DNA of 64,000 bases from Marsupella aquatica (GCA_973895155.1 OZ316897.1:16315838-16379837), one strand, 5' to 3'; shown: positions 21,926 to 64,000, numbered from the stretch's first letter. Made by a program: numbers and translations. The notes: generated by a model from the sequence alone, not told the origin.

Positions 21926-22044
21926 TGTAGTTCTTTATTGAACGCATGAACCTGCGCATGAATAAAGATTGCATCACTTTTGTATTAATATGTTTGACTT
22001 TTTGCCTGAATTATATGTTTGCAATGCACAACCATGTTTGCCTC

Positions 22045-34711: not shown

Positions 34712-35545
34712 TCCGTGTGCATATTACCCGCATACCGTGGGGTATCGCTGGGGTATTTGGGATGTCAGCGTCCAATTGCCGCTCTCCAAGTGGCTTCGCT
34801 GAGGTGTGCAGGATGATAGTCATCTCCACCATCCAATTTTGCTGTGGTAAAGTGGGGATTCCGTGTGCATATTACCCGCATACCCATGGGGTATCGCTGG
34901 GGTATTTGGGATGTCAGCGTCCAATTGTCGCTCTCCAAGTGGCTTCGCTGAGGTGTGCAGGATGATATTCATCTCCACCATCCAATTTTGCTGTGGTAAA
35001 GTGGGGATTCCATGTGCATATTACCCGCATACCGTGGGGTATCTCTGGGGTATTTGGGTTGTCAGCGTCCAATTGCCGCTCTCCAAGTGGCTTCGCTGGC
35101 AGCCCTGGAGGTGCGCAGGATGATATGCATCTCCACCGTCCAATTTTGCTGTGGCTAAGTGGGGATTCCGTGTGCATATTACCCGCATACATTAGTGTAT
35201 CTCTGGGGTATTTGGGTTGTCAGCGTCCAATGGCCGCTCTCCAAGTGGCCTCGCTGGCAGCCCTGGAGGTGTGCAGGATGATATGCATCTCCACCATCCA
35301 AATTTCCTGTTGTAAAGTGGGGGTTCTGTGTGCACATTACCCGCATACCCTGGGGTATCGTTGGGGTATTTGGTATGCCACTTCCAATTGCCACTCTCCA
35401 GGTGGCTTCGCTAACAGCCCTGGAGGTTTGCAGGATGATATGCATCTTCACCGTCCAGATTTCCTATGTCGAAGCAGGGATTACTTGTGCATTTTACCTG
35501 CATACCGTGGGGTATTTGTAGGGTATTTTTGATTCCAGGCTTCTT
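34712..35545. repeat. Tandem array, ~148-158-bp unit (~5.5 copies), distantly related to the 32.5-kb array
   Basis: gtgcatattacccgcatacc recurs at ~34717, 34865, 35015, 35172, 35330 and 35488. Confidence 0.9.
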
Positions 35546-42200: not shown

Positions 42201-42905
42201 TCAGATATGAGTTGCATCCAAACTATCAAGCAGGTCCTGCAATCTACATCTAACAGAACTAAGCTGCGACGCCGTGGCCGGGTCTGAAGCATTAATAGAT
42301 GATCTTGAAGATTCTGCTGTATGCCTCCCTTGTGCAGTATGATAACTTGAAGGTACACTGTCCGTCTTCAACTTCGTCTTCCGTGGAGTGACAGAAGTAG
42401 GCACCACAGAATGCAAGATCTCACAGTCATCATCGCTTACAGGTGACAAGGAATTAATAATGGCCTCACCGTCTTTGCAGTGGATCACTACGTCCACACA
42501 TTCCATCTTTGTTGTAGCTCTATGGACAGTAGCAAACTGGACAAAGTCTTCCTTCTCGCTAAAATCCTGCGGAGGCATCCCTATGAGATCAGTCGCTACA
42601 TCAAAAATCTTAGCTCGCACTGGAGGGAAGTGTGGCCCGATAGTAGAGTCAACCAGGAACACCTCAAAACGATACCTTTCTATCCAGGTCCCAGCAGCAA
42701 CCAAATTATGGGGACATCAACTTGACCCTTCAACAGTGCGATTACACATCCACCCAGGTGTCACAAAGCGAGTACATCCATGGTATAGAAACTTCCGCGG
42801 AAAATCGATTGGAGCATCAAAATTGACCACAAAAACCCTCATCGATGGGAAGGTCCTCGTTTCTCCAGCATTGCAGCAGCCAACGACATCTTTAAGTGTG
42901 GCCAT
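42201..42905 (-). pseudogene. RPA70 C-terminal (DBD-C)-like Zn/OB-fold ssDNA-binding protein, single exon, one in-frame stop at 42717
   Basis: MATLKDV...FLYHGCTRFVTPGWMCNRTVEGSS*CPH...RYRFEVFLVDST...AKIFDVATDLIGMPPQDF resembles the Rep_fac-A_C pattern (Y.AC..C.++V....C....RY.+.+.+.D.T.....F...A..++G). Confidence 0.6.
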
Positions 42906-43025
42906 GTCTTTGAAAAGAGCCGCCCAGCAGAAATCCAAACAATAGTGGCGAAGGGCAGGCACTCAGCCGGGCGCAAGCACTACTCAGGAAGGGATGAATA
43001 CCGATCTGCAATGGTTGCGAATCAA

Positions 43026-46000
43026 TGTGGTGCATCCCATGGCTCCCTAAACCCAAGAAACCCCCAGCTCAAGCCGATTCCCGCAGGTTTCGTGCTTGGC
43101 GAGGCCGTTTCCGCGGCTTAGCGGCATGGGACGCTGCTAACCTTCTACTACTACTATTAACATTTTACACACATATACTGGACAGATCCTTCATCGGGTC
43201 ATGAGATACGTAGTCGGCCTAATATAGGCCTTCCCCTGTCTTCCCCTCCGTCTTGTTAGGTATGTTTGGATTCCGCCGCCGGAATGATCCCCAATAGGCT
43301 TGGTTAAGCCGCTAAGACCTCTCTTAGCTCGACACATCCAACTCTCACTCCCCTGCTTACTTTCCTTCCTTCTGTTGATGTGGGCACTCTTCACACAAGT
43401 TAATGCGACACACAAATAGCAAAATGACTCATTCTGACTGAGTCATACCATGCACTTGCCATACAAATAGTACATCTCATACACAAGTTCTGCGAACTAA
43501 GCCGTGAGGCCAACTCTATTCAACTCTTAGGCATGAGGAAACATGAATATACACAAGGGTCACTGTATGACTAACCGAGAGCTTCTCGTACTACTTGATC
43601 CCAGCCCGGCTGGTGCAAACTAAAAACTTGCTAAAGAAGAGGCCCTGAGCTCCCCGCTGCCCAGGTACTTATCCTGGTAGTGGATCCGCCATTCTTTGCA
43701 TCGTAAGCCTAATCTACTTAACAGTAATCTACTTGCCCGAATCTACCTATGTACAGCAAGGCAGGAGCACAAGTGTTGCTCCTACCAGTGGGACCGCAAT
43801 CCCACTAAGCTAAGTGTCAGGGCCGCTCCTGGTTCTGATCCTAATCCTAAACGTGGAGATCCGCGCCCGCCCTGCCCACTCACGCCTCCTCCCTCCACGT
43901 CCGCCCTCCCTAAAAGGAACGGCGCCCTTGCACCGTCACGACACCGGTGGTGGATCCTTAATGGACGCCCCCAACGCTTCCTCCTCAGCCACTGCCGTAG
44001 GCTCATTCCCTGACAGATTACCTGCCCTTGACTGAGTCAACTCTCCATCGGCCTGACTGGGTCCACCATCGGTGTCGGCTCGAGAATCGGTTACGGCCTC
44101 AGCCTCGGCTACGGTCTCCCCGGCCTGCTCAAGAGGCGGATCTGGAATACTGGCCTCCTTACTGAGTAGTTCGGCTTGGGCCGCACCATCCCTACCTATG
44201 ATCATAGCGGGATCTATTGCCGTATTCATGTCGGAGGATGGTGCTGGTTCTACCTCTTTGGTCACCACGGCTTGTGGAGTCGGATTACTCCTTGACCCTG
44301 AAGGTTTCCGCTTTTTCTTCTTTTTCTGGTTCGGCAGCTGGTCCCTTCCCCTTCCCACTTACCTCCGGCACTGGTGCAGTTGGCGCGGCTTTTTCTTCGG
44401 CCAGTACCACTCCTGGTAACTTGGTTGCCCCAATTGGAGTTGGGCCTGATGAAGACAAGCACCTAAATACTGTGGCTTGTTTCTTCAGCCGCTCCGTTTG
44501 GTTATCGGCCCGCCGCTGGAGGTTCTCCATCTTCCTCGTGATTTCCTCCAACTCCTCCTGGGTCTCATCCAGGTCCTTGCGTGCCTCCTCTAGTTCCTTC
44601 TGGGCTTCCTCCCGTTCTTGTTTCAAGGTAGTCCTCTCCTCCTGGGTTGCTTTTAGCTCCTTGTCGAGCTCTGCAATGATGATAGACTCCATCTGGTTCA
44701 TCTTGGCGTAAGTCTGTTCGAGCATCTCGTCCTTCTCCCTTAGGTCGGCCTTGAAGCTGGCCGTCAGGGACGCAAGCTCCTGCTGCAGCGCCATAATCCC
44801 TTGATAGGATTTCCCTAACTCGGCCTCCTTCTGCTCAAGGGCTCCGCGGATTTTCTCGAGCTCCCCTTTCAATGCCCATTCCTTTCTTTGGGTCTCCGCC
44901 ATGGCCCGGCTGTTGGCTGTTATGTGGGCCTCCTCTGTATTCTTCAGCTCTTGCTTCCACTTCTCCCTCTCTTTGATCGTGTCGGCCAACTCTTCCTGCG
45001 TCTGAGTCAGTTTATCCTTGATATTCTGATTATCAGCCTGCACGGTGTCCAACTGCCCCTGCATGATGTTCAGCTCATGTCGTTTAATCCGCAGTTCATC
45101 TTGGGCTTTCTTGGCCGCCCTTAGATCTTCAATCTCGGCTTCCATCCTCCTAAGCCGCCGAATGACCTCGTCCTTCTTGCTTCTCTCTAAAGCCACCACT
45201 TCTTCTAATTGGTGCTTCTCCAACTGCTCCCTATGGAAAAAGGGTCCTACCTCCAACTCCTCTCCAAAGATGCCGAGCGCAAGTTCCCCACACATCTCAC
45301 CATACTCCATGGCTCTATTCTTAGCGTAGGTGGAGTAAGTAGAAGTGATCGGCATCGCCCATCGCGGCCTCTGCTCCCAAGCCGTCCTGCGGATCTCTTC
45401 AATCGTGGCTAGAGGTTTGCTTCCTTTTTTGGCTAGCCGCCTGATGTCCTCCGGCCAATCTCCTCCTGGTAAATCCTTTTCCTTAGCCAGGGCGGCCTCC
45501 TCCTCCTGCTTGATTCGCTCCTGAAATTCCTACACCGTCTGTTTTATGCCGTCGAAGCTCGGGGGAGCAACATCTGGTGGGGGAGACTCAGGGCTACTCT
45601 GCTGGTTGGGGTCCCCTCGCACTACCCTTGGAAGTGTGGGGACAAACCGGCCACAGGTCCTTACTCCTGGAACGTGATGGTCCGACCCATAGCCGGAATT
45701 ATCATGGCTGCAGTCCTCCACTGCCTCCTCTACCTCTTGGACGTCCGGCTTCTCCCTCTCCTCTTCGTCGGTAGGAGCTTCAGGCAATTCTGCCTCAGAT
45801 TCGGAGCTTGAGGTTCCCACGTACATTCGAACACCTGGCTTGGATTCCGGCCTGATTCTCTCCTTGTCTCCAGCAAAGGGGTTTTCTCTTGTGAGCCGGT
45901 GTAGGCCTACCTCTGTAGTAGTGTCCTGCATTGTTGCCGTTGCCGTTGTTGTTGCCGATGCCGATTTCTTTTCTTTCTCCAGTAGTTTCAGCAGACTCTG

Positions 46001-47678
46001 CATGCCTGGTTGCTGCATCGGCAAGTCCTCCTTCCTGGGCCTAAACACCTGCTTGATCGTAGGACTAACAGGTGGTTGAGGCTTCTCAGCCAACGGCCTC
46101 GGCATTGGAGCTTCCTCGGGTGCCCTTACCTGCAGGGGAAGTACCGGGGCAAAAGTCTGACCTCTGGCATACCGGCACAACAGCGGCATATGATAGCCCA
46201 GCCGCGACACGCTCCCCATGCCGATTACCTGCTGCTCCTCCTTTAAGATCTTCTTCAATTGGTTGAGGAGGTACCCGTTGTAGTCCCGGCTTGGGTCTGG
46301 CCTTTCTGCCAGATAGACCTGTGCCTTGCCGATCTCTGCCCTCGGCAAGTTACAATGCATGGTCACCCGCAAGAAGTCGATCATCTCTCCTATGTGCGGG
46401 TTGGTGCAGGTGTTCCGGAAGAAGCCATTCTTCGTTGATGGCCCGGGGAACGACCGGAACTCCTTGTCAGGCAAGGTCTTCCTGGTATCAACTTTGGTCT
46501 TATTGCCTATCGGCAGGCCAAACACTTCGGCAATTACCTTGGGAGTAAGATAGAAATCCTTCCCATATATCCTCGTGCAATTGGTCTCGGGTTCCCATGA
46601 CCCCACGAATTCTAATAGGTCTGACTCCGGTACCTCCGGCTTCAGCCATGGTAATCTTACAAAGGCCTCCAAGCCGGATCCGGCCATGAAGCCTTGGTAC
46701 TTCTTGGTCTGCATGGCCGTAAAGCATGCATCCTCCTCCCGTGCAAAATGTAGTTGCACCTCCACCGGTAGGGTTGCCGCCCAGCCCTTCCAGGTGTCAT
46801 CCCTGGTTGGAATGGCCTTGATGGGATCGACCTCCTCCTCTTCGGCTTCTCCCTGCCTCCTGTTCTGCTGCTCGGCTGGCTTCTTTGGTGCCGCCGACCT
46901 CGTTCTTTTTGCCGGGGTGGCTTCATCGTTGACGGCTCCCTTCCTCTTCATCTCTGCTGCCGTGGAGGTTTCTCCTAGCACCGTTGCCTGGGTCCACCTT
47001 TCCATGCTACCCTTTAATTCCTAGTGTATGTCATTGCAGTTCTTGATGGCCTCTGGGATGCCGACGACGCTGTCTTTGCAAAACAGAAGATCGTCGAGTT
47101 GATTGGAAGTAGGCGTCCACAGGAACTCGTCCTTGATGAGTTCGCCTCCTAAGAAAGCCGTCTTCTGCAGCTCCCACAATCGAGCGAGCTCCTGCCGTTC
47201 TCGAGCTGCCCTTTTTGACTCCTCGTCCTCGTAAGTCTTGATGTACTCAGTTGCCCGTTCGAACAGGCATCCCCAGAAATGTGCCGCTTGATTGACGTTG
47301 CTCATACCCTCCTTAGGTCGATCGTCAGTATCTACTCTCTCCCCGAGTGCTTGCCTAAGCAGCTGACAGTAGTTGGCCTCCCGTAGTCGTCTGCCTAGTT
47401 CATGCTCGCAAATGAGCCACCATCTCCTGCAAGCGCTCCTTACCCCTCTCCTCCGCCGGTCCTTCTTCCCGTTGATCCTTCCTAGCCACCGACGCTTAAC
47501 GCGCCCTAACCCTAATCGGGTTTTCACCCTCAGCCTTACCTCCGGCCTCGGCCCGGGTTCCATGGTTGCCCCTAATTGTTTATATTTTCCTTGTTTTGTC
47601 CCTATACTAAGGTGTTCCTAGGGTGCCTTCCTGCTTTACCCACTTAACCGGCCGAGTGATTCCTGTCTAGGCATCACA
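43026..47678 (-). repeat. 3' LTR, 4,653 bp, containing a long ORF
   Basis: Begins TGTGATGCCTAGAC 2 nt after the PPT and ends ...GCACCACA. Both ends are shared with the copy at 53901-56464, and the start is also shared with 60324. Confidence 0.92.
43936..47563 (-). pseudogene. LTR-embedded ORF (~1,208 aa reconstructed): basic N-terminus, PMD/transposon-protein-like domain, acidic linker, long coiled coil, KKKKRK patch
   Basis: ORFs 47563-47021, 47005-45530 and 45355-44285 share one frame, separated by single TAG codons that are TGG and CAG in the third copy. A 1-nt insertion at 44321-44325 is absent in the third copy. ATG context is gcaaccATGG. Confidence 0.85.
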
Positions 47679-50600
47679 TAGCTCCCCACTTAATTGTGAA
47701 GCGTCCTCGCGAACAACTTCATCTTCGTCCATATAGTATTTCTTGAGGCGGTCATAATGGATGCGAACTGGATATACCTCTCCCGTAATGTTGGCCAATT
47801 GTACGGAGCCATTGGGGAACATCATGGTTACTCTAAAGGGTCCTAACCAGCGAGTGTAAAGCTTTCCTGGAAACCTACTATACCTACTGTCATAAAGTAG
47901 CACAAGATCACCGGTATGAATACTAACTACTTTTAACCTTTTATCATACTGCTGCTTCATGATATTCTGTCTATATTCTACTCTCTCGGCTGAAATCATT
48001 CTCGCTTCCTCTAAAGCTTCTAACCTATATTCTCGCTCCTTTAGGCTCTCCTCCGCTGAGGCTCTTTCCTCAATTGTAACTTGAAATGTCGGTATCTCAA
48101 GTTGCATGGGTACCAGGGCTTCTTGTCCAAAGGTTAAGAAGAAGGGTGTATGACCGGTAGTGGATTTATAGGCAAGATTGTAAGCAAAAATAGCAGCAAA
48201 CAATTTATCATCCCAATCGAGTTTGTTCTGAGCTACTGTCTTGTTCAATATCTTTCCTATAATTCCGTTTGCTCGTTCTGTCAACCCGTTTGCCTTTGGA
48301 TGGTAGGGAGTAGTAGGCCTATGTTTAACTAAATACTGCTCATTTAAACGACTAATTATATCATTCAAAAAATGGGTTCCTCTATCACTAACTAATTCTA
48401 GGGGTGCTCCATACCTGGTGAAGATCTGCTCATACATGAATCTAGCCGTAGTAATTGCATCATCCTTCGTTGTTGGTCTGGCCTCTACCCATTTAGTTGC
48501 ATAATCCATAGCCAGGATTATGTACTTGTTCCGTCGAGGGTGGGTCAGTGGTTTCAGAGGTCCAATGTAATCAATACCCCACTTCTCGAATGGTGCCAGA
48601 GGTAGAATAGGGTGCAGTGGATGCCTGGTGGACGCCCTTGGTCCTCCCGCTCGTTGACAAGGATCGCATTGTTTGATAAACTGATAGACATCTTTGTGCA
48701 AGGTGGGCCACCAGTAACCGGCATTTAATATCTTTTTAGACGTGGTTACTGGGGCAAAATGTCCTCCGGCCTCCTCTCCATGCATGGCCCATAGGACTCG
48801 TTTTACCTCTCTCTTTTCCAAACATCTTTGAATCGTGCCGTTGATTCCATGCTTGTGCAGTATGCCTTTAATGCACTGATACTGTCTGACCTTCCGCACA
48901 AAGACTGCGGCTTGCTCTCGGCTTAATCCTGGCTGTAATCTGGAAGTGCTGAGAAATTGTAAAATCTCAGGGTACCATGTACCAGCTATTTCCACAACGA
49001 ATAGCTCCTCGTCGGGGAATCGATCATCGATGCAATCCGTGGCAGGTTTACCTGTGATCCTTGAAAAGAAGTCGGCATTGGCATGTAACTTTCCCGGCTT
49101 GATCCTCAGCTCATAGTCAAACTCCTGTAATAGCAAAATCCATCTTGCTACTCTGCCTGTAAGGTCCGGCTTATTGACTAGGTACTTCAAACTTTCATGA
49201 TCAGTATGAAAGATTACCTTGTACCCTAGTAAATAATGCCTAAACTTTTTACAAGAATAAATGACTCCTAATGCTTCTCTTTCCGTGGTAGAGTAGTTCC
49301 GTTCGGCATCGGCAAGCTGACGGCTTGCAAAGTATATGGGATGGTCCCTTCCTTTCTCATCCAACTGACTTAGTACTGAGCCAATACAGAAGCCCGAGAC
49401 ATCTACAAAAACATGAAAATCTTTGTTCCAGTCCGGTGCTATCATGACTGGGGCCTCTACTAACATCTGCTTCAATTCTACCACCGCTGTGACTCGTTCG
49501 GGTGTGGGTTCGAAGTCTGCTCCTGCCTTGAGCATATTGGTTAATGGTAAAGCTAGCTTGGCAAAATCCTTGATGAACCGGCGATAGTAACCAATGCATC
49601 CCAAGAAGGATCTTACATCCTTTATGTTCTTAGGTTGCATGATATCTAGCCATACTGCTAGCTTACCTTTGTCAATCTCAATGCCCTTCCTTGATACCTT
49701 GTGACCTAGTAGCACCCCCTCGGTTACTGCAAAAAAACATTTATCTAGGTGTAACTTGAGACCCACCTCTCTACATCTCATGAAGGTTTTCCTGAGGTAT
49801 TTAGCATGTTTCGATGCCTTCCCGAATACTGCAAAGTCATCAATGAAGATTTCCATGAACTTTCTCAAGTAATCATGAAAAATGTTCACCATTAATCGTT
49901 GGAACATAGCTGGTGCGTTGCAGAGTCCAAACGGCATACGATTGAAGACATAGATCCCCCATTCCATGATGAAGGCCGTCTTGATTTGGTCTTCCTGCCG
50001 AATCCTGATTTGGTTATAACCAGAGTATCCATCCATGAATGAATATAGTTCATGACTGGCTACCATGTCTAGTACCATATCAGTAAACGGTAAAGGAAAA
50101 TGGTCTTTTAATGTTGCTTCATTTAGCTTCCTGTAATCCTGACAAACCCGGATCTTGGGTTTACCATCGGGTCCAGCTTTCTTGGGAACTATCACAATTG
50201 GAGACACCCAGTCTGAATGCAGGACTGGAGTGATGAATCCAGCTTCCACTAGTTTGTCGATTTCTGTTTTGACCAGCAGGGAATACTTCGGGTTCATCCT
50301 TCGAATTGGTTGTCGAAATGATTTGGCTCCTAACATGAGATCAATTCGATGTTCCCCTAGTGTTGGATCTACTCCCTTTAGATCTTGGTGACTCCATGCA
50401 AACACATCCTGAAATTCAATCAATAAGTCACTGATCTCTTTCTCGAGCTCAGGTGCTAGGTTTCTCCCTAAGTTCAGTTCTCTTCCCTCTCCTAAGTCGA
50501 GCTTCCGATATTGCCGTGCTTGGATCATATTAATCTGCTTCTTCAAATTCGGGTCCAGTTCGGCTTCCAGTCTCTCTAATCTCATACCTCCATAAACTGG

Positions 50601-50933
50601 GATCTCGGCTGGACTAGCCGAGTCGGTCCCTTCCTTGGTGTCCATAGATTGTCCCCTTACCGGTCTCTTCGGTTTTGAATTAGTGGTCGGCTCCCCTTCC
50701 TGCCTTGGCTCTGGATCGTGTCTGTCCATCTCATCCACCTCTTGCTCCTGAGAGTTAGGCCGCTGTGCTCTCTCGGCTTCTAATAGGGCCTCAATTTGTT
50801 CTGCCCTCGTAATCGGCTTGTATGCCGATCCCTTGGTATTTAATTCCTTGCCGATGATCGATGGCGTTGTGAACCCTGCCGGCTCTGCCACAACGCCTAC
50901 AGAAAATCCACTGTCCCTGCTACTGCTCCCCAC
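47667..50933 (-). CDS. pol: Pol: reverse transcriptase, RNase H, integrase (uninterrupted 1,088-codon ORF; stop lies inside the LTR)
   Basis: SFMDGYSGYNQI, MPFGLCNAPAMFQR, FIDD; RNase H FVDVSG...YSTTEREALG...TDH; integrase H..GGHF...CDPCQR, WGIDYIGP, VSDRGTHF, NGLTER, WLGPF. Confidence 0.96.
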   Translation of the reverse strand: MGSSSRDSGFSVGVVAEPAGFTTPSIIGKELNTKGSAYKPITRAEQIEALLEAERAQRPNSQEQEVDEMDRHDPEPRQEGEPTTNSKPKRPVRGQSMDTKEGTDSASPAEIPVYGGMRLERLEAELDPNLKKQINMIQARQYRKLDLGEGRELNLGRNLAPELEKEISDLLIEFQDVFAWSHQDLKGVDPTLGEHRIDLMLGAKSFRQPIRRMNPKYSLLVKTEIDKLVEAGFITPVLHSDWVSPIVIVPKKAGPDGKPKIRVCQDYRKLNEATLKDHFPLPFTDMVLDMVASHELYSFMDGYSGYNQIRIRQEDQIKTAFIMEWGIYVFNRMPFGLCNAPAMFQRLMVNIFHDYLRKFMEIFIDDFAVFGKASKHAKYLRKTFMRCREVGLKLHLDKCFFAVTEGVLLGHKVSRKGIEIDKGKLAVWLDIMQPKNIKDVRSFLGCIGYYRRFIKDFAKLALPLTNMLKAGADFEPTPERVTAVVELKQMLVEAPVMIAPDWNKDFHVFVDVSGFCIGSVLSQLDEKGRDHPIYFASRQLADAERNYSTTEREALGVIYSCKKFRHYLLGYKVIFHTDHESLKYLVNKPDLTGRVARWILLLQEFDYELRIKPGKLHANADFFSRITGKPATDCIDDRFPDEELFVVEIAGTWYPEILQFLSTSRLQPGLSREQAAVFVRKVRQYQCIKGILHKHGINGTIQRCLEKREVKRVLWAMHGEEAGGHFAPVTTSKKILNAGYWWPTLHKDVYQFIKQCDPCQRAGGPRASTRHPLHPILPLAPFEKWGIDYIGPLKPLTHPRRNKYIILAMDYATKWVEARPTTKDDAITTARFMYEQIFTRYGAPLELVSDRGTHFLNDIISRLNEQYLVKHRPTTPYHPKANGLTERANGIIGKILNKTVAQNKLDWDDKLFAAIFAYNLAYKSTTGHTPFFLTFGQEALVPMQLEIPTFQVTIEERASAEESLKEREYRLEALEEARMISAERVEYRQNIMKQQYDKRLKVVSIHTGDLVLLYDSRYSRFPGKLYTRWLGPFRVTMMFPNGSVQLANITGEVYPVRIHYDRLKKYYMDEDEVVREDASQLSGELCDA
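47679..47692 (-). other. Polypurine tract
   Basis: TAAGTGGGGAGC-TA immediately before the TG of the 3' LTR. Confidence 0.8.
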
Positions 50934-53831
50934 TTAGCCGTTTCATCCAATTGGTCTACATCCTTTACTTCCTCCGGAATTGCAGCTAAAAAGGTGGATT
51001 CTATTGTAAAGCAGTCCTCGACCTCTTCGTCTTCTTCTTCCAAGTCACCTTCCATTGGTTCTTGCCATAATCCGCTGGGGGCTACCTCTGGTCCAAAGAC
51101 ACCTTCTTCGGTTAGGTTAGTGAGGCATTCTAACCAACGTACTTCATCGGCTGACTCCAGTCCACTGTCGTACCCATCTACTTCCCTTATGCTTTTCCTA
51201 CGGTCATCCTTAGTGTCCCAGGATACCGTGATAGAGGGGGTCCCGAAAGTGAACTGCTTTTTACCCCAATCTTCTATTACCTCGGCTAGGTACAGCCATG
51301 GCCTACCAATCAATAGCCGGAATGACGTAGAATTTACCGGCTTCATTACTACATAGTTAATGCTAAAGAAGATACCTCCTATCTCTATCTTGATGCCGGT
51401 TAACACTCCCGTAGGAATGACCTGATATCCATTGGCCATGTTCAACACTCTTCCAGTCATCTCCGGTGTTAGACCCCACCCTTTTGCTGTTGAATCAATC
51501 ATAATACATACCCCTGATCCTCCATCGATGGGTACCCGTAGTAATAATTCTCCTTGAATCATTAATGGTAATGCTGGGGCTCCTTGATCTTCTTCTATCA
51601 TTAGTACGTCGGATCTGGTTGCTACCTTGGGTAATCTTGGCTTGCCGAGAATAGCCTTCCTTAATTGCTTCCGGAAGTACGGTCTATTTTTCAATAGTTG
51701 ACCTACTGTTGCCGAGACTCTAGATTCTAGTACATCTTTAGCCAGGTCATAGGGAACAATCGGCTTCTCTTCTGGTGGTGTTTCCGTCTTGGATTCGGCC
51801 AGTTTTGCCACGCTAGTCTCCACAGCTGTTGGGTCTTCCGAAGCAAACAATGCTTTTGCTCGTTTTACATCCTTGGCAATGGCTTCGGTATTCTCCATGG
51901 TTTCTAATTCTCTTAGTTGTTCCTTAACACTAGCCGTAACAGAGGGGTAGAACAACTTAGGATGATCTCGATTGAAGTCGCTATCTTGTGAAGGATTGGT
52001 TTCACTGGTGGGCTCATGGCTTACCTGTATTGCCGGAGCCCTCCCTTCTCCTTCTGTTGATGTTGACGAAGAGTCGATCCTTTCCTCCGTAACCTTCCCT
52101 TTATTTTTGGCCAGCCCATCCCACCTTTCCTTCCTTCTGGTAGATCGAGTAGAGACCCGGTAGCAATCATGATCTAAATCCTCCTCTGAGAAGGTTGATA
52201 GGGCTTCGGCCTCATCATCAGATGGTACGAACTCTGCCTCGGCATCCTCTTGCCATCCTAGTTCGATGTGGTTGATTTGAACTCCTCCGGGGGTAGTACC
52301 TGGCGGTAAGATCTTGATCGGCAAAAGCTTATGATTTGCGGCCAGGCCTGCCAACCAAGTAGGACATTGCCCTAGCATATGACCTTCCTGTCGGCATCCC
52401 ATACATAGCTGAGCTGGTTGTCCATCACCCTGTTTGCGTGCATTCGGGCATTCTCTAGCAAAATGGCCAGGTTGACCACAATTATAGCACGCTGCAAATC
52501 TTTGCACATTCGGCCTAGGGGGTACTGACGGGTTCTGAATAATCCGAGGATACATCTCTCCTGGATTGTTCCTTAACCCTGACCACAGAGATGCAGGTCT
52601 GTTGGATAGGTCTCGTGCTCCAGTCTCACTGATGCCGAAAACACTATCAGCGGCATCTCCCAAAAAGTACTCTACTTCTCCCTGACATGGTCTGATCTCG
52701 GCCACATGCCGAACATGATTAGTATTAAGCTTAGGACACGCATCTTTATGGTGTCCGGTTTTATAACATAAGGCACACCATACAGAGCTATCCTCCTGTA
52801 CTACCTTCTTCTTTGGTTTTACCTCTGCAATGATAGCCTTAAGTTGCTCGGTAAGGGCTACGATGTTATCTGGTGGCTTAGCCTCCATCTTGACTTTCGT
52901 CTTCCCTCTCCTTCTGCCCTTCCTTTTCCTAGTTTTTTCTTCTTCAGAACTAGAAGATGACTCACTCTTGCTACTCCCACTATCCGAGCTTGACTTATCA
53001 CTTCTAGACTTCTTGGAATGTTTCTTCTTCTTATCTTTTTTCTTATGGGGTGATCCCTCCTCTGATGAGGAACTCTCAGACTTAAGCTGTTTCTTCCGGC
53101 TTGTGATATCTGCATTAATGTATAATTGAATATCCTTAATTGCTTCGGCTAAAGTCTCCGGGTTCTCCTTCCTAATTGCAAAACTCATCTTCTGTGACAA
53201 AGCATTCACCAACCATTGAAGTTGCATACCTTCAGATGCATTGGTCTTTGTCCGTCTTACCAGTTTCTGAAAGTGTTGCAAGAACTTCCTGAAGGATTTG
53301 TTCTCCTTGAACCGAAGTTGTCCCAACTTCAGCACTGCTAGTTCTGAAGTTCCAATGGGTCGAAACTCCTTAACAAAGAGTGTTTTGAAGATATCCCAAG
53401 GCTTGATCTTCCACATCTAATGCTCTGTACCAAGGCCTAGCCTCACCCTTGAACAGGCCGGGAAGAATCTGCATCTTGATGGCCGATTCTCCATTTGCTG
53501 CAGCGGTTCCCTCGAAATCATCCAACCATTCGTCCGGATCCTCATCTCCTCTCCCATGAAATGCCTTGTAATGTATGCGCGACCGCTGGCTCAATCTGGT
53601 CCCTGGCCTCTCGTCTGGCCGTGCCTCTGGTTCCCCCATGTCGGTTGGAGACTCACTTCTCCTTACCGACTCTTCTTCTGGTATGTCTTCTTCGACGCCA
53701 CTTCCAGTTTCGGAGCTACCAGCTCTTTCTGCCCCTCTCAGTCGCTGTGTATCATGCCACCCGGCGAGCTGCTGCAGTCGAGCTCTCTCCCGTTGAATCA
53801 CTCTTTCTTCCCTCGGCGTAAGGTCAGTCAT
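50897..53831 (-). CDS. gag: Gag-protease (one frameshift near 53400), three CCHC zinc knuckles
   Basis: FHGRGDEDPDEWL...KGEARPWY capsid motif. Knuckles CALCYKTGHHKDAC, CYNCGQPGHFAREC, CMGCRQEGHMLGQC. Protease VPIDGGSGVCIM...LLIGRPWL. Confidence 0.9.
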
Positions 53832-53876
53832 TACCTACGCTTCCGTTCTAACTTCATATCTCACGGCTTAAGAAAT

Positions 53877-53896
53877 GCCCTCTCCATCTAGCGCCA
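53877..53896 (-). other. Primer binding site
   Basis: TGGCGCTAGATGGAGAGGGC begins 4 nt after the 5' LTR's terminal CA. Cognate tRNA not assigned. Confidence 0.75.
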
Positions 53897-53900
53897 AAAA

Positions 53901-56464
53901 TGTGGTGCGTCCCATGGCTCCCTAAACCCAAGAAACCCCCCAGCTCAAGCCGATTCCCGCAGGTTTCGTGCTTGGCGAGGCCGTTTCCGCGGCTTAGCGG
54001 CATGGGACGCTGCTAACCTTCTACTACTACTATTAACATTTTACACACATATACTGGACAGATCCTTCATCGGGTCATGAGATACGTAGCCGGCCTAATA
54101 TAGGCCTTCCCCTGTCTTCCCCTATCTTCCCCTCCGTCTTGTTAGGTATGTTTGGATTCCGCCGCCGAAATGATCCCCAATAGGCTTGGTTAAGCCGCTA
54201 AGACCTCTCTCAGCTCGACACATCCAACTCTCACTCCCCTGCTTACTTTCCTTCCTTCTGTTGATGTGGGCACTCTTCACACAAGTTAATGCGACACACA
54301 AATAGCAAAATGACTCATTCTGACTGAGTCATACCATGCACTTGCCATACAAACAGTACATCTCATACACAAGTTCTGCGAACTAAGCCATGAGGCCAAC
54401 TCTATTCAGCTCTTAGGCATGAGGAAACATGAATATACACAAGGGTCACTGTATGACTAACCGAGAGCTTCTCGTACTACTTGATCCCAGCCCGGCTGGT
54501 GCAAACTAAAAACTTGCTAAAGAAGAGGCCCTGAGCTCCCCGCTGCCCAGGTACTTATCCTGGTAGTGGATCCGCCATTCTTTGCATCGTAAGCCTAATC
54601 TACCTGACAGTAATCTACTTGCCCGAATCTACCTATGTACAGCAAGGCAGGAGCACAAGTGTTGCTCCTACCAGTGGGACCGCAATCCCACTAAGCTAAG
54701 TGTCAAGGCCGCTCCTGGTTCTGATCCTAATCCTAAACGTGGAGATCCGCGCCCGCCCTGCCCACTCACGCCTCCTCCCTCCACGTCCGCCCTCCCTAAA
54801 AGGAACGGCGCCCTTGCACCGTCACGACACCGGTGGTGGATCCTCAATGGACGCCCCCAACACTTCCTCCTCAGCCACTGCCGTTGGCCCGCCTACTGAC
54901 AGATTACCTGCCCTTGACCGAGTCAACTCTCCATCGGCCTGACTGGGTCCACCTTCGGCTTCAGCCTCGACACCGGCCTCGGCAATACCCATGGCTTCGG
55001 CCTCAGCCACTCCCACGGCTTCGGCTTCAGCCACTCCCTCGGCTTCGGCTTCCCCTTCCCCTAGGGTGGTTGGATCCTTAGTCGTGACCCTGTCTGGGGT
55101 CGGTGCTGGGTCTACCTCCTTGATCACCACGGCTTGTGAAGTCGTATTACTCCTTGACCCTGAAGGTTTCCGCTTCTTCTTCGTTGGTGGCTCGGCAGCT
55201 GGTCCCTTCCCCTTCCCACTTACTTCCGGCACTGGTGCAGTTGACGCGGCTTGTCCTTCGGCAATTACCACCCCTGGTAACTGGTTTGTCCCAACGGGAG
55301 ATGGACCTGCTGCAGCTAAGCATTTAAATACTGCGGCTTGTTTCTTCAGCCGCTCTGTTTGGTTGTCGGCCCGCCGCTGTAGGTTCTCCATCTTCCTCGT
55401 GATTTCCTCCAACTCCTCTTGGGTTTCATCCAGGTCCTTACGTGCCCCCTCCAGCTCATTTTTGGCCTCCTCCTGCTCCCTGTGGGCTTCCTCCAATTCC
55501 TTCTTCAAGGTAGCCCTCTCCTCCTGGGTTGCTCTTAGCTCCTTGTCGAGCTCTGCAATGATGACAGACTCCATCTGGTTCATCTTGGCGTAAGTCTGTT
55601 CGAGCATCTCGTCCTTCTCCCTTAGGTCGGCCTTGAAGCTGGCCGTCAGGGACGCAAGCTCCTGCTGCAGCGCCATAATCCCTTGATAGGATTTCCCTAA
55701 CTCGACCTCCTTCTGCTCAAGGGCTCCGCGGATTCTCTCGAGCTCCCCTTTCAACGCCCATTCCTTTCTTTGGGTCTCCGCCATGGCCCGGCTGTTGGCT
55801 GTTATGTGGGCCTCCTCTGTATTCTTCAGCTCTTGCTTCCACTTCTCCCTCTCTTTGATCGTGTCGGCCAACTCTCCCTGCGTCTGAGTTAGTTTATCCT
55901 TGATATTCTGATTATCAGCCTGCGCGGTGTCCAACTGCCCCTGCATGATGTTCAGCTCATGTCGTTTAATCCGCAGTTCATCTTGGGCTTTCTTGGCCGC
56001 CCTTAGATCTTCAATCTCGGCTTCCATCCTCCTAAGTCGCCGAATGACCTCGTCCTTCTTGCTTCTCTCTAAAGCCACCGCTTCTTCTAATTGGTGCTTC
56101 TCCAACTGCTCCCTATGGAAAAAGGGTCCTACCTCCAACTCCTCTCCAAAGATGCCGAGCGCAAGTTCCCCACACATCTCACCATACTCCATGGCTCTAT
56201 TCTTAGCGTAGGTGGAGTAAGTAGAAGTGAACTCTCCTCTGCCGGTCCTTCTTCCCGTTGATCCTTCCTAGCCGCCGACGCTTAACGTGCCCTAACCCTA
56301 ATCGGGTTTTCACCCTTAGCCTTACCTCCGGCCTCGGCCCGGGTTCCATGGTTGCCCCTAATTGTTTATATTTTCCTTGTTTTGTCACTATACTAAGGTG
56401 TTCCTAGGGTGCCTTCCTGCTTTACCCACTTAACCGGCCGAGTGATTCCTGTCTAGGCATCACA
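53901..56464 (-). repeat. 5'-position LTR, 2,564 bp: ~2.1-kb internal deletion and a diverged block
   Basis: Collinear with 43026-45348, then jumps at ~56229 to the equivalent of ~47446-47678. Confidence 0.92.
54822..56192 (-). CDS. Uninterrupted coiled-coil half (456 aa) of the LTR-embedded ORF, variant allele
   Basis: Open ORF from an internal ATG, homologous to 45310-43936, with in-frame indels. Confidence 0.7.
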   Translation of the reverse strand: MEYGEMCGELALGIFGEELEVGPFFHREQLEKHQLEEAVALERSKKDEVIRRLRRMEAEIEDLRAAKKAQDELRIKRHELNIMQGQLDTAQADNQNIKDKLTQTQGELADTIKEREKWKQELKNTEEAHITANSRAMAETQRKEWALKGELERIRGALEQKEVELGKSYQGIMALQQELASLTASFKADLREKDEMLEQTYAKMNQMESVIIAELDKELRATQEERATLKKELEEAHREQEEAKNELEGARKDLDETQEELEEITRKMENLQRRADNQTERLKKQAAVFKCLAAAGPSPVGTNQLPGVVIAEGQAASTAPVPEVSGKGKGPAAEPPTKKKRKPSGSRSNTTSQAVVIKEVDPAPTPDRVTTKDPTTLGEGEAEAEGVAEAEAVGVAEAEAMGIAEAGVEAEAEGGPSQADGELTRSRAGNLSVGGPTAVAEEEVLGASIEDPPPVS

Positions 56465-58984
56465 CATATGCCTCAAACGTGCCACACAAACCCTTGAATG
56501 ATGACAATGCATCAATTCCATGGCGTCCTCCGTCCCACGTCACACCAGCGTGCCTTAGGAGTGCGCCCAGTCCTACATTTGCCATGTCGGATGGAGGGTC
56601 GGGTGAAGGTGTCAAATTTGTAGATGGGGGAATCTGAATCTTCCCGAATAGCATTTTCAAAATGCTATCCTGCAATGCCTGAGGCATTTTAGCCTCGTCA
56701 AGCATTGATTGTAATCTCCAAGTTTGTCGATAAATTGCTTCGTCCACGATCAGTATTCTTTGAGGCATTATGTGGATACCATACTGCATGGGAAGCGTCT
56801 GACCAATCCCATCAACATCCAGGTCCTGCAAATCGTTTCTTCCAACGTCATCATTCCCGTCTCCTCCTGTAAGTGCCCTGTACAACAAAGTGGGGGCTGT
56901 ATATCTGTGTTCTTGTCGGGACATTTGAACACCAAAGAAGCTAGCAGAATGACCGTCTTGATGCGATAGGCCATGGCCATCCGGATGCCCACGGTCCACT
57001 AAAAACTTTGCAGGAATGACCCTGCCTGTCTTGTCATAGTTTGCATGTCGTCTTCGATTCCTTGGGCTCACAAAATCATACCCATCCCATAAGCGCGAAC
57101 ATTTGTACTGACAGGTGCATCGTTCCTGGCTTCGGTTCTGGCGTCATGGTGCACACTGCCGTTCCTGTGTACAAAATATTGCAACGAAGTCGACTCAGAA
57201 TTCCTCAGGAGGTGGATGTGCGCGGTGGGATTGTCGGAAGGACGATTGGAGAAGTTCATTATTATGTTCAAGAATACTGTGCATAATTAGGTGGGGCCCA
57301 CGGCATTCATGACTCCGGGAAAGCATTCAAACGTCCTTGTTGCATGTGAGCGAATGTGCTACAGTAGGTGGGAAACCTTATCGTTGACCCTGCAAGCCCG
57401 GGGCCACTGCCTCTAATCCCTCTAAGGCAGTCACTCACCATGTTGAATTCATGCTTATGCTATTCAAATTTGAAGTTCATGTGTATGGTTTTCTTTCTTG
57501 GGCAGCTTACTCCGGGAGTTTATTGACATTTTTGGTTCAAAGTGCATGTTTTTTATTATTGTTGGGACATTGAAATTGTTGTTGGGCCCTGTCTAGGTCT
57601 TTATTTATTTTGTATCCGACCCATCCTTTCTTACAATATGGTCTATGTAAATAGAATTGTCATCCAAGCTTTTTAATGGCATTCCAGTTCACCAAATGCA
57701 TACCAGCTGGTTATAGGGGCTGGCCACGACATCAGCCATCTCAAATGTCACAAGATTAGTGTCATACATACTAATTATTGTGTGACCCTGAAATACCCTG
57801 CTGCCTCAATCTTACGTGCTCATGTCAATTTGTTTTGGGGTTAAGGACCCCCAATGTACCATTTGAAAATAGGTCATTGGTTGATACCCCCTTCTTAAAT
57901 GAAGATAGAGTAATGGCGCAATATATTGAAGTTTAAATAAGTAATGTAGACTATGGAATATTCCTCTAGGGATATAGTGTAGCCTAATATTCCCTTTGTT
58001 AATTCATTTTAGTACTAGTTTGTTTACCTTCATGAAGTCTATAAGCTACCAGAGTTTTAGACAAATTAACACAGGAAGAACAATAATTTTCTAGTACTAA
58101 TTTACAAAAGGATCTAATGTGATAGGATAAGTAATGTTTTTACATGCATAACAAGGCATTTTTAATGCATCAAACGATATACATGGGGGGGGGTTTGTTC
58201 TCAGGGGGGTTCACTTAATGTAGCAAAAGAGGGAGGGCCGAGGGATTCTACTTTGATTTTGATTTTATAAATACGTACATAATCCGCTTTTCAATTCGTC
58301 AAACTTTAATAAAGTTTGAAATGTAATTCAGCTTCATTTGTCAAATGTTAAGTTACACACATCAATTCAGAGTCTATTTGCTTGTCACCAAAAGTAATCT
58401 AACTTACTTGAATATAGAATGGCATGTATTTACTCTCGATCACTTCTTATATAGTGTCACACTTGTTAATGATGGTCAACCTTCAAAATCCTTAGATTAC
58501 GGATTATTAATCCTTAAATTACCCTTCCATTGACATATCATACTAGCTAGCCTTCATTACCTGTTCTTTGCACAAACATGAATAGAGGATAGTACGTATA
58601 AATCATGACAAATGGCATACATGCTTATTATTTGACATACTGGTCATGAGTTTTCTCATCCACATGATCTACCTTGTAGTTGGCGCTTTATAAGTTCTAT
58701 TGTTAAGGGACTGAGACAATTGGTACCTACCTAGCTACCTCCCAAGTTCACCTTAGGATCACGGAACTTGTTATACATGGATCTGCGAACATGCATGTTT
58801 GATTTAATCACTCTCTCAAAAAGGAATAGGAAGGTCACAAAACCCACCAATCATTTATTGACATGTGGCAACCAATGAATTGTGTGATGAAAAGTGGGAC
58901 TTTTTGAATTGTTACCCCCTTACTTCATCCCTACTTCTAAGCACTTCCTTACAAATTAATAATGACTGAAACGCCCCATACTTT

Positions 58985-59452
58985 GGTGCACATGATGTGA
59001 ACATTTAATTTGTGGAAGTGACCCGCACCCCCACCCACCCTGAGCTACCTCCATACTTCATCCTTAAATTAATTAACCTTCCACATATGCATGCATGCAT
59101 ATATGTGCGCAAGTCTTAGGGTTTAGGGTTTAGGGTTAGGGTAATGAATAAAAGGCCCCTTACTTCGATCATTTGCACATGATGTGAACATTTAATTTGT
59201 GGAAGTGACCCGCACCCCCACCCACCCTGAGCTACCTCCATACTTCATCCTTAAATTAATTAACCTTCCACATATGCATGCATGCATGCATATATGTACG
59301 TGCGCAAGTCTTAGGGTTTAGGGTTAGGGTAATGCATAAAAGGCCCCTTACTTCGATCATTTGCACATGATGTGAACATTTAATGGGTGGAAGTGACCCC
59401 CACCCCCACCCACCCTGAGCTACCTCCATGTTTCATCCTTAAATTAATTAAT
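58985..59452. repeat. ~187-bp tandem repeat (2.5 copies) containing telomere-like TT(T)AGGG runs and CATGCATG repeats
   Basis: tgcacatgatgtgaacatttaa at 58987, 59174 and 59362; ttagggtttagggtttagggttagggt at ~59116. Confidence 0.9.
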
Positions 59453-60323
59453 ACGCCTGCCTAGCTGTATGTTTGGTCGCGTTTCACAGGACTTGGCAAG
59501 GAAATGATAATCATTTCCAATCTTATTTTTATGTTTCTCATATTTATGTAATAATATATACTAAGTGCGTGATGACCCCCCCCCCCCCCCCCTAAAGAAA
59601 AGAAAATAGAGTTTTAAAAAGCAAAATGACCCCTGCCTCACCCAATGCTTTTGTGTCCCTCCTCTTCAAAAACCCTTATAACTTCACCTTAAAAGCAGGA
59701 AAATGTGTTAAAAACTCTCCCCTTGTAAGTCATCATGATGTGACATAAAGTGTGCCAATGGTCCATATAACTGGCAATATAAGGGCCTAGATCCAACATT
59801 TGAAACATGTGGCACATGGCAATGAGAAAGTATTGTAGACATTATTATGGGCCCTGTTTTAGGCCCCTCATCACAAGTTCAGCCATATAGCAACCTCTAT
59901 AAGATTCAATGTATGTAAGGAAAGCTCCCACAAGTTCATCCAATGTCTTCAGAAAATGAAAACTCAGATTTATGTTAGGGGAAGGGTGAGAAATTTAGAA
60001 CGAAAGGAGACAAAGTCTTTTTTTATTTGATTTATTTTGCCGCATATTTACTCCATTAAAACGTGCCCAAGTACACAAAGTGTCCGCCATGTCTCCCAAG
60101 AGAAAAACTCTGCGTCTCTCTAAAATGAACGTCTCCCAAAGCTCCGCTTCCGTAGAGTCAACGTCCCCGTAAAATCAACGTCTCCCAAAACTCGGCCCTA
60201 AACTCCGGGTCTCCCTTCTGGATCCTCTACTTGCATTCACTTTGCGCCCCACGATAATTTACTTATCTAGTGACCCCTCTGCACAATTTGTCGAGTGTTC
60301 TGCAGTCCGGCTTGTCATTTGAT

Positions 60324-63300
60324 TGTGATGCCTAGACAGGAATCACTCGGCCGGTTAAGTGGGTAAAGCAGGAAGGCACCCTAGGAACACCTTAGTATAG
60401 GGACAAAACAAGGAAAATATAAACAATTAGGGGCAACCATGGAACCCGGGCCGAGGCCGGAGGTAAGGCTGAGGGTGAAAACCCGATTAGGGTTAGGGCG
60501 CGTTAAGCGTCGGCGGCTAGGAAGGATCAACGGGAAGAAGGACCGGCAGAGGAGAGGGGTAAGGAGCGCTTGCAGGAGATGGTGGCTCATTTGCGAGCAC
60601 GAACTAGGCAGACGACTACGGGAGGCCAACTACTGTCAGTTGCTTAGGCAAGCACTCGGGGAGACAGTAGATACCGACGATCGACCTAAGGAGGGTATGA
60701 GCAACGTCAATCAAGCGGCACATTTCTGGGGATGCCTGTTCGAACGGGCAACTGAGTACATCAAGACTTACGAGGACGAGGAGTCAGAAAGGGCAGCTCG
60801 AGAACGGCAGGAGCTCGCTCGATTGTGGGAGCTGCAGAAGACGGCTTTCTTAGGAGGCGAACTCATCAAGGACGAGTTCCTGTGGACGCCTACTTCCAAT
60901 CAACTCGACGATCTTCTGTTTTGCAAAGACAGCGTCATCGGCATCCGAGAGGCCATCAAGAACTGCAACGACATACACTGGGAATTAAAGGGTAGCACGG
61001 AAAGGTGGACCCAGGCAACGGTGCTAGGAGAAACCTCCACGGCAACAAAGATGAAGAGGAAGGGAGCCGTCAACGATGAAGCCACCCCGGCAAAAAGAAC
61101 GAGGTCGGCGGCACCAAAGAAGCCAGCCGAGCAGCAGAACAGGAGGCAGGGAGAAGCCGAAGAGGAGGAGGTCGATCCCATCAAGGCCATTCCAACCAGG
61201 GATGACACCTGGAAGGGCTGGGCGGCAACCCTACCGGTGGAGGTGCAACTACATTTTGCATCGTAAGCCTAATCTACTTAACAGTAATCTACTTGCCCGA
61301 ATCTACCTACGTACAGCAAGGCAGGAGCACAAGTGTTGCTCCTACCAGTGGGACCGCAATCCCACTAAGCTAAGTGTCAGGGCCGCTCCTGGTTCTGATC
61401 CTAATCCTAAACGTGGAGATCCGCGCCCGCCCTGCCCACTCACGCCTCCTCCCTCCACGTCCGCCCTCCCTAAAAGGAACGGCGCCCTTGCACCGTCACG
61501 ACACCGGTGGTGGATCCTTAATGGACGCCCCCAACGCTTCCTCCTCAGCCACTGCCGTAGGCTCATTCCCTGACAGATTACCTGCCCTTGACTGAGTCAA
61601 CTCTCCATCGGCCTGACTGGGTCCACCATCGGCGTCGGCATCGGCTCGAGAATCGGTTACGGCCTCAGCCTCGGCTACGGTCTCCCCGGCCTGCTCAAGA
61701 GGCGGATCTGGAATACTGGCCTCCTTACTGAGTAGTTCGGCTTGGGCCGCACCATCCCTACCTGTGATCATAGCGGGATCTATTGCCGTATTCATGTCGG
61801 AGGATGGTGCTGGTTCTACCTCTTTGGTCACCACGGCTTGTGGAGTCGGATTACTCCTTGACCCTGAAGGTTTCCGCTTTTTCTTCTTTTCTGGTTTGGC
61901 AGCTGGTCCCTTCCCCTTCCCACTTACCTCCGGCACTGGTGCAGTTGGCACGGCTTTTTCTTCGGCCAGTACCACTCCTGGTAACTTGGTTGCCCCAATT
62001 GGAGTTGGGCCTGATGAAGACAAGCACCTAAATACTGCGGCTTGTTTCTTCAGCCGCTCCGTTTGGTTGTCGGCCCGCCGCTGGAGGTTCTCCATCTTCC
62101 TCGTGATTTCCTCCAACTCCTCCTGGGTCTCATCCAGGTCCTTGCGTGCCTCCTCTAGTTCCTTATGGGCTTCCTCCCGTTCTTGTTTCAAGGTAGTCCT
62201 CTCCTCCTGGGTTGCTTTTAGCTCCTTGTCGAGCTCTGCAATGATGACAGACTCCATCTGGTTCATCTTGGCGTAAGTCTATTCGAGCATCTCGTCCTTC
62301 TCCCTTAGGTCGGCCTTGAAGCTAGCCGTCAGGGACGCAAGCTCCTGCTGCAGCGCCATAATCCCTTGATAGGATTTCCCTAACTCGGCCTCCTTCTGCT
62401 CAAGGGCTCCGCGGATTTTCTCGAGCTCCCCTTTCAACGCCCATTCCTTTCTTTGGGTCTTCGCCATGGCCCGGCTGTTGGCTGTTATGTGGGCCTCCTC
62501 TGTATTCTTCAGCTCTTGCTTCCACTTCTCCCTCTCTTTGATCGTGTCGGCCAACTCTTCCTGCGTCTGAGTCAGTTTATCCTTGATATTCTGATTATCA
62601 GCCTGCGCGGTGTCCAACTGCCCCTGCATGATGTTCAGCTCATGTCGTTTAATCCGCAGTTCATCTTGGGCTTTCTTGGCCGCCCTTAGATCTTCAATCT
62701 CGGCTTCCATCCTCCTAAGCCGCCGAATGACCTCGTCCTTCTTGCTTCTCTCTAAAGCCACCGCTTCTTCTAATTGGGGCTTCTCCAATTGCTCCCTATG
62801 GAAAAAGGGTCCTACTTCCAACTCCTCTCCAAAGATGCCGAGCGCAAGTTCCCCACACATCTCACCATACTCCATGGCTCTATTCCTAGCGTAGGTGGAG
62901 TAAGTAGAAGTGATCGGCATCGCCCATCGCGGCCTCTGCTCCCAAGCCGTCCTACGGATCTCTTCAATCGTGGCTAGAGGTTTGCTTCCTTTTTTGGCTA
63001 GCCGCCTGATGTCCTCCGGCCAATCTCCTCCTGGTAAATCCTTTTCCTTAGCCAGGGCGGCCTCCTCCTCCTGCTTGATTCGCTCCTGAAATTCCTGCAC
63101 CGTCTGTTTTATGCCGTCGAAGCTCGGGGGAGCAACATCTGGTGGGGGAGACTCAGAGGGCTACTCTGCTGGTTGGGGTCCCCTCGCACTACCCTTGGAA
63201 GTGTGGGGACAAACCGGCCACAGGTCCTTACTCCTGGAACGTGATGGTCCGACCCATAGCCGGAATTATCATGGCTGCAGTCCTCCACTGCCTCCTCTAC

Positions 63301-64000
63301 CTCTTGGACGTCCGGCTTCTCCCTCTCCTCTTCGTCGGTAGGAGCTTCAGGCAATTCTGCCTCAGATTCGGAGCTTGAGGTTTCCCACGTACATTCGAAC
63401 ACCTGGCTTGGATTCCGGCCTGATTCTCTCCTTGTCTCCAGCAAAGGGGTTTTCTCTTGTGAGCCGGTGTAGGCCTACCTCTGTAGTAGTGTCCTGCATT
63501 GTTGCCGTTGCCGTTGTTGTTGCCGATGCCGATTTCTTTTCTTTCTCCAGTAGTTTCAGCAGACTCTGCATGCCTGGTTGCTGCATCGGCAAGTCTTCCT
63601 TCCTGGGCCTAAACACCTGCTCGATTGTAGGACTAACAGGTGGTTGAGGCTTCTCAGCCAACGGCCTCGGTGTTGGAGCTTCCTCGGGTGCCCTTACCTG
63701 CAGGGGAAGTACCGGGGCAAAAGTCTGAACCTCTGGCATACCGGCAACAACAGCGGCATGTGATAGCCCAGCCGCGACATGCTCCCCATGCCGATTACCT
63801 GCTGCTCCTCCTTTAAGATCTTCTTCAATTGGTTGAGGAGGTACCCGTTGTAGTCCCGGCTTGGGTCTGGCCTTTCTGCCAGATAGACCTGTGCCTTGCC
63901 GATCTCTGCCCTCGGCAAGTTACAATGCATGGTCACCCGCAAGAAGTCGATCATCTCTCCTATGTGCGGGTTGGTGCAGGTGTTCCGGAAGAAGCCATTC
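60324..64000 (+). mobile_element. Third LTR copy of the same family, starting in + orientation, with an internal inversion from ~61255; runs off the window
   Basis: 60324-61260 is the reverse complement of 47678-46742. 61255-64000 is a direct copy of 43695-~46430. Preceded by TTGAT. Confidence 0.92.
60439..61266 (+). pseudogene. N-terminal 275 aa of the LTR-embedded ORF, truncated at the inversion junction
   Basis: Reads through IHWELKGSTERW where the left LTR has a stop; ends VQLHFAS* at the junction. Confidence 0.8.

Follow-up and report, generated by a model that had tools for sequence, protein, structure and literature searches.

An accessory gene within the 4.65-kb long terminal repeat of an Athila-like Ty3/gypsy element of Marsupella aquatica

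A window of 64,000 nt from Marsupella aquatica (GCA_973895155.1 OZ316897.1:16315838-16379837; coordinates below refer to it) contains a Ty3/gypsy retrotransposon and three copies, A, B and C, of its long terminal repeat (LTR), inside which lies a sense open reading frame (ORF) of about 1,208 codons (Table 1). Copy A begins with TGTGATGCC at 47678, where it directly adjoins the polypurine tract (PPT) at 47692-47679, and ends in ...GCACCACA at 43026, a length of 4,653 bp; its termini are TG...CA, with seven of the eight terminal bases in inverted match. The same LTR start is present at 56464 and 60324, each time with other flanking DNA, and the five bases that follow copy A, read on the element strand, are those that precede copy C. 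The ORF opens with an ATG at 47563, 115 nt inside the LTR, and its stop (43938-43936) falls 910 nt short of the LTR end. A preliminary description of the locus had placed the PPT/LTR boundary, its recurrence with different flanks and the ORF in just this way, and all of these placements hold. The only TATA-like box of the LTR lies ~20 nt before the ATG, which stands in a strong Kozak-like context, and is a candidate promoter of the ORF's own. In the tail of the LTR, no enriched 7-mer was found that could serve as a candidate binding motif; one 7-bp word occurs there three times in 30 bp (43717-43746) and nowhere in the internal region, a count not above chance.

Two stops (47023-47021 and 45532-45530) and an extra base in a run near 44321-44326 interrupt the ORF in copy A, as do a stop (62281-62279) and frame-breaking indels at 63747, 63729, 63383 and 63158 in copy C, much as the preliminary description had listed them; the extra base of copy A is absent from B and from C. 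The longest open piece has 496 codons, whereas 300 shuffles gave 176 on average and 433 at most, and three such pieces lie in one frame. Parts of the element occur in ten public sequencing runs from eight studies, with more than half of its words in five, and one of the runs may be the window's own source; the summed contig depths obtained from them are not copy numbers and serve solely as a contrast between regions. In runs X1, X2, X4 and X6, 97.5-100% of the depth carries another letter at the stops of copy A, and the form without the extra base, for which support is weaker, accounts for only 21-26% of the depth in X1, X2 and X4 and for 100% in X6. Over the open tail of copy B, a single frameshift (one X4 contig) is found among 12 of 16 indel rows listed. 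Between natural copies, comparisons over 117 and 238 codons in the diverged tail gave ratios of nonsynonymous to synonymous change (dN/dS) of 0.28 (p 1.6e-4) and 0.44 (p 6e-5), respectively; that between copies A and C is 0.55 and not significant. Where it can be measured, the ratio is well below 1; the ORF is under selection, which in its tail is purifying. We are highly confident of this together with the LTR boundaries, the family-wide occurrence of the long LTR and the homology to an internal ORF of a relative, L001, discussed below.

The median summed contig depth of the LTR relative to the internal region (42600-54200) is 3.3, 4.3, 2.1 and 2.0 in X1, X2, X4 and X6, respectively, and 3.8, 4.3, 2.5 and 2.7 when only the gag-side bins, which are less touched by other families, are used as the reference. 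The step in depth is located at the PPT, and depth remains at LTR level across the ORF in all four runs. The ratios of the non-coding LTR tail to the ORF (1.43, 0.71, 1.64 and 0.76) reveal no consistent excess of the tail. At the LTR start, four X4 contigs exit into differing flanks, as do two X6 contigs at the LTR end (53600-58100). The depth of the low-copy spacer between copies B and C is ~50-80x below that of the internal region in X1 and X3, and the family is therefore high-copy. The long, ORF-bearing LTR is thus a family trait rather than a local accident: the step at the PPT, the lack of an excess of short LTRs and the varied flanks agree with the preliminary description, which had ascribed the LTR gene to the family as a whole. 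LTR/internal ratios above 2 suggest, moreover, that solo LTRs exist. Given two LTRs per insertion, each new insertion would carry two copies of the ORF and each solo LTR one, so that residence in the LTR alters the dosage of the gene.

Copy B consists of LTR positions 1-233 and 2331-4653, with an out-of-frame deletion of 2.1 kb between them. This deletion was considered as a possible intron and ruled out, as it is not bounded by GT-AG and does not keep the frame. At this point X1, X3, X4 and X6 continue with copy A sequence, and no joint spanning the deletion is present among 15 of 27 joints listed. On both sides copies A and B are ~1% apart, but over LTR positions 3001-3600 they differ by 9-23% per 200 bp; in this diverged stretch (54822-55560, versus 43936-44680 of A) the indels are in frame on balance, and 24-bp repeats occur. 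Within the family, recombination is taking place between two alleles of the tail of the ORF protein. Inside copy C, ~3 kb is inverted, and the junction (61255-61260) is a 6-bp microhomology common to LTR positions ~937 and 3984. Copies A and C are separated by 42 differences in 3,672 sites (Kimura two-parameter distance, 0.012). Mutations of methylation type are present in both dated copies.

On the simplest reading, A and C would be the LTR pair of a single insertion and B part of a second one, in opposite orientation and 3.9 kb off, recombination between the internal regions of the two having inverted the DNA between them. Such an inversion would explain why the present B-internal-A arrangement has no matching duplication, and, with A and C as the LTRs of one insertion, the 5-bp duplication would be an independent mark of both LTR ends. 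One X1 contig tracks the spacer exactly to 56465 and then continues with 258 unlike bases; it appears to represent the empty site of copy B. Within this low-copy DNA, an open frame of 227 codons without Pfam match (56460-57143, minus strand) is interrupted by the copy B insertion.

The remainder of the element fits Ty3/gypsy in its order of gag, protease, reverse transcriptase (RT), RNase H (RH) and integrase and in its TG...CA LTRs, primer-binding site (PBS), PPT and short target duplication. The pol frame passes through the PPT and ends 12 nt inside the LTR, and the element is therefore without a 3' internal region. A Pfam scan of pol found neither a chromodomain nor a second (additional) RNase H. 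REXdb Athila elements have a PBS for tRNA-Asp or tRNA-Asn, and the present PBS may resemble the tRNA-Asn type. It is unlike the Asp-type PBS printed in PMC2844528, as far as the accessible text goes. The closest named pol relatives are from Calypogeia (66-67%), followed by Riccia (52-59%) and Marchantia (50%). In a midpoint-rooted RT-RH tree of the 97 of 121 sequences that were long enough, a set without REXdb reference elements, the element groups with Calypogeia and environmental elements in a bryophyte clade, on a long branch from the angiosperm Athila-type matches. These relationships by themselves point to a leafy liverwort as the likely host. Third-position GC is 0.64-0.65 in the LTR ORF (43936-47563) versus 0.44-0.46 in gag and pol (47670-53416), which suggests that the ORF has a different history or mutation regime.

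A HMMER search of the middle ORF piece against 1.84 billion proteins gave 20 matches, the best with 41% identity (E 4e-49). Nineteen lie within or overlap residues 66-290 of this piece; the remaining one, a repeat-rich protein, was left out of the homologue set. Of 10 homologue clusters examined, four carry a Calypogeia fissa annotation. For the same piece, a word-indexed protein search found no match among longer or near-length proteins, nor was there one in JGI metagenome contigs. No Pfam match at the curated cut-off (Transposase_32, Athila ORF1 or plant mobile domain) was obtained for the ORF pieces or the 19 homologues. For remote homology to Transposase_32, Athila ORF1 or the plant mobile domain, hhalign gave an E value of 0.008 (probability, 5%), and the domain profile, set against a single angiosperm PF20167 protein, did not reach significance. 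PDB sequences gave nothing beyond chance-level rows, Rfam no match and the tRNA gene search none. Foldseek likewise returned nothing from its viral and PDB libraries or in a closer look at 25 chains. Single-sequence structure prediction was uninformative (pLDDT, 33); the nearest fold for the domain is the solved VANC21 structure, a weak hint. Coiled-coil Pfam matches are weak only. Besides the bipartite motif (Table 1), another basic run is present close to the C terminus in copies B and C, and the tail of the ORF is fast-changing and contains short repeats. A hydropathy scan of four ORF pieces showed no transmembrane helix or signal peptide (top 19-residue mean, 0.86).

Among 79 loci fetched by pol similarity, in a scan that took in 9 of 64 parts, the closest is L001, a metagenome contig with 58% pol identity. 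Its pol is followed by a PPT look-alike and a 745-aa ORF, after which come the true PPT and an LTR of ~990 bp; this LTR holds no ORF longer than 64 aa. The PPT block and first LTR bases of L001 match those of the window (0 of 200 shuffles reach the score), and blastn of the two LTRs gave no DNA match. A profile made from the conserved domain and its homologues, with every locus ORF left out, detects the L001 ORF with an E value of 1.6e-6 and, among the same 1,482 targets, Athila-type accessory frames of L028 (E 1e-4) and L024 (E 0.08); the L024 ORF also matches Transposase_32 below the curated cut-off. The LTR gene is therefore probably a relocated member of the ordinary stock of 3' accessory ORFs. 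The new kind of accessory gene proposed in the preliminary description has to be given up, as homology to the internal accessory ORF of L001 makes the position new and not the class of gene. In the window element the true PPT block and the LTR start lie at the end of pol, and 3.6 kb of coding DNA was probably taken into the repeat by one of two routes, both of which fit. Either plus-strand priming shifted to a duplicated PPT block ahead of the ORF, or the ORF became integrated immediately within the former LTR start. The window family and L001 together offer a before-and-after view of an LTR engulfing a gene.

The upstream PPT look-alike of L001 has its best window match right after the ORF stop, which is not significant (19 of 200 shuffles). 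Look-alikes between pol and the accessory ORF are seen in several Athila-type relatives, namely L001 (3735-3790), L024 (14784) and L015 (6869), and supply material on which a shift in plus-strand priming can draw. L004, with a 6.2-kb repeat and a 1,267-aa ORF, was rejected as a second case. This metagenome contig overruns its assembly cycle, whereby 1-6190 and 12557-18746 mimic a 6.2-kb ORF-bearing LTR; PPT and PBS define an LTR of 1.4 kb and an internal ORF.

The best explanation, to which we give about even chances as a whole, is that the accessory gene was relocated into the LTR and that its protein may help the element to evade silencing by the host. Its message would come from a promoter at the 5' tip of the LTR or be spliced from the 3' LTR. 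The proposed function is more tentative, and falls somewhat short of even: the protein would act in the nucleus on the family's own copies, with a DNA-binding domain of the plant mobile domain (PMD)/VANC type on a coiled-coil scaffold. It is distinctly doubtful that a VANC-like anti-silencing gene with its own promoter moved into the LTR and acts in trans from solo LTRs; if true, deletion to solo LTRs, the host's main removal route, would amplify the counter-defence by leaving a 1,200-residue gene in each. Possibly, though on balance unlikely, the LTR gene is real and its protein serves the particle or integration, in nuclear import, chromatin tethering or as a scaffold or chaperone. The long coiled-coil-like region, the motifs resembling nuclear localization signals (NLS), the lack of a chromodomain and the methylation-type mutations of both dated copies would suit such a role, which is proposed for additional plant ORFs in the available text of PMC7264820. 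It sits less easily with the sole structural hint, a DNA-binding anti-silencing protein, and with the fast-changing, short-repeat tail, which recalls the VANC variable regions described in the accessible portion of PMC5735166.

That all copies in the window are broken might also indicate a decaying passenger, functional in the internal region of an ancestor, swept into the LTR and no longer expressed. The TATA-like box, if used, may put the start site past the first ATG, and the low dN/dS between old alleles could predate relocation. We consider this improbable, as the checkable lesions are each private to one copy and the frame is kept over long stretches in copies ~1% apart, while a 3.6-kb insert is easily lost. 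Local nesting, tandem duplication or assembly error in a family with a short LTR and an internal ORF could be suspected from the rearranged state of the window (two inversions and one deletion), from L004, where assembly fakes a giant LTR, and from the short-LTR layout of L001. The 5-bp duplication common to the outer ends of C and A, the absence of a significant second PPT, the LTR-level depth over the ORF in 4 of 4 runs and the several flanks at both ends render such an origin very improbable. An env-like role, as a membrane or movement protein in cell-to-cell spread, is equally improbable: a sense ORF downstream of pol recalls the 'env-like' ORFs of Athila in the text available of PMC7264820, but the hydropathy maximum gives no transmembrane helix and there is no viral fold match.

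LTRs are usually regarded as non-coding. A survey and a review of plant accessory ORFs place such ORFs in the internal region, and in the present family coding selection extends over 78% of the 4.65-kb LTR. The novelty lies in where the accessory gene of an Athila-like element is found, in a very long LTR; the gene class is known. An LTR gene of this kind requires multi-kilobase plus-strand strong-stop DNA, and it defeats tools that limit LTR length or date insertions with LTRs as neutral sequence; the default LTR length of ATHILAfinder is 1-2 kb in the accessible part of the preprint. What Athila-type accessory ORFs do has long been asked, and VANC21 as nearest fold, weak hint though it is, gives a specific and testable answer, anti-silencing DNA binding.

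Elsewhere in the window lie a B3 DNA-binding-like frame (23044-24003, minus strand, E 4e-4), a PIF1 helicase piece (20997-21545, plus strand, E 2e-26) that is likely a Helitron relic, and a CIA30-domain exon (3280-3885, plus strand, E 2e-10). An old inverted repeat of >1.4 kb (12882-15426 versus 26753-29334) has 67-83% identity, and tandem arrays occupy 19605-20200 (59/161 bp), 22041-22449 (19 bp), 32580-33094 (147 bp), 34712-35528 (158 bp) and 58987-59451 (188 bp).

Table 1. Coordinates of the element, its LTR copies and the LTR-borne ORF
Feature	Position	Strand	Remarks
Copy A, full-length 3' LTR, 4,653 bp, TG...CA	43026..47678	-	PPT before, 5-bp duplication after
Target-site duplication after copy A	43021..43025		Same 5 bases at 60319-60323, before copy C
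Polypurine tract	47679..47692	-	Block and first LTR bases match L001
TATA-like box, only one of LTR	47577..47584	-	Candidate promoter
Sense ORF inside LTR, ~1,208 codons	43936..47563	-	Broken in A at 47023, 45532 and near 44321-44326
Conserved globular domain, ORF residues ~247-471	46151..46825	-	Weak links to Transposase_32 and to VANC21
Long charged helical region, likely coiled coil	44444..45226	-	Approximate limits, predicted from sequence
Bipartite nuclear-localization-like motif	46898..46948	-	Pattern scan
RT-RNase H-integrase frame	47667..50933	-	Passes through PPT
gag (two zinc knuckles) and protease	50897..53831	-	In this copy interrupted at about 53,400 and 50,900
Primer-binding site, begins TGG	53879..53896	-	4 nt after LTR end
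Copy B, 5' LTR of second insertion	53901..56464	-	LTR positions 234-2330 missing; PBS follows
Copy B ORF tail	56228-54822	-	Open, diverged allele
Low-copy spacer between two insertions	56465..60323		Probably inverted
Copy C part 1, LTR positions 1-937	60324..61260	+	1.5% from copy A
Copy C part 2, LTR positions 1249-3984, inverted	61255..64000	-	1.0% from copy A; continues past window edge

Mouse mammary tumor virus (MMTV) sag and human and simian immunodeficiency virus (HIV/SIV) nef are retroviral genes that lie in or overlap U3 and are duplicated at each integration. These belong to animal retroviruses in which the U3 placement is mapped, and their ORFs and LTRs are much shorter than those of the window. 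The present ORF lies wholly inside both LTRs, as in MMTV sag-type genes, and may fall in U3, where the preliminary description put it, or in a long R. Very long LTRs of 2.5-5 kb are known from plants, in rice Retrosat2, RIRE3 and RIRE8, Ogre, BAGY-1 and soybean Diaspora (PMC3485330 and PMC1142308, available text). In the same portions of these papers, Retrosat2 has an extra ORF0 upstream of gag-pol, searched separately from the LTR (PMC3485330), and Diaspora has a pol that nearly adjoins the PPT, with no other long frame reported (PMC1142308). In full-text literature, mostly outside subscription papers, we found no plant element whose LTR encloses a long ORF, and a precedent may exist.

VANC21 belongs to VANDAL21, a Mutator-type DNA transposon, and its DNA binding and demethylation are proven, according to the accessible parts of PMC5735166, PMC5418596 and 10.1101/2024.09.27.615353; VANC proteins are marked by a DUF1985-type fold and by binding, with lowered methylation, to a short motif enriched in non-coding DNA of the element. 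Compared with VANC21 and the plant mobile domain proteins MAIN/MAIL1, the window protein has no sequence match or enriched target motif. REXdb Phygy elements, with a 4-bp NCGN duplication and no extra ORF, do not match the window element, with its 5-bp duplication and long ORF, and REXdb Tat/Ogre/Retand elements carry the additional RNase H that it lacks, although a liverwort Tat clade without this domain is described in the available text of PMC13468544. L001 shares the PPT block, the LTR start and a homologous accessory domain and differs in its internal ORF and short LTR. Among the closest known systems is the Athila lineage of Ty3/gypsy (REXdb non-chromovirus|OTA|Athila; PMC6317226, and PMC7264820 and PMC11728184 in their accessible parts), which also has the gag-protease-RT-RH-integrase order, lacks additional RNase H and chromodomain, makes a 5-bp target duplication and carries a sense accessory ORF with NLS-like motifs after pol. 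The window domain is perhaps weakly related to Athila ORF1/Transposase_32 (PF20167). In Athila, however, these ORFs lie between pol and the PPT, whereas the pol of the window element runs into the PPT and its accessory ORF lies wholly in the 4.65-kb LTR.
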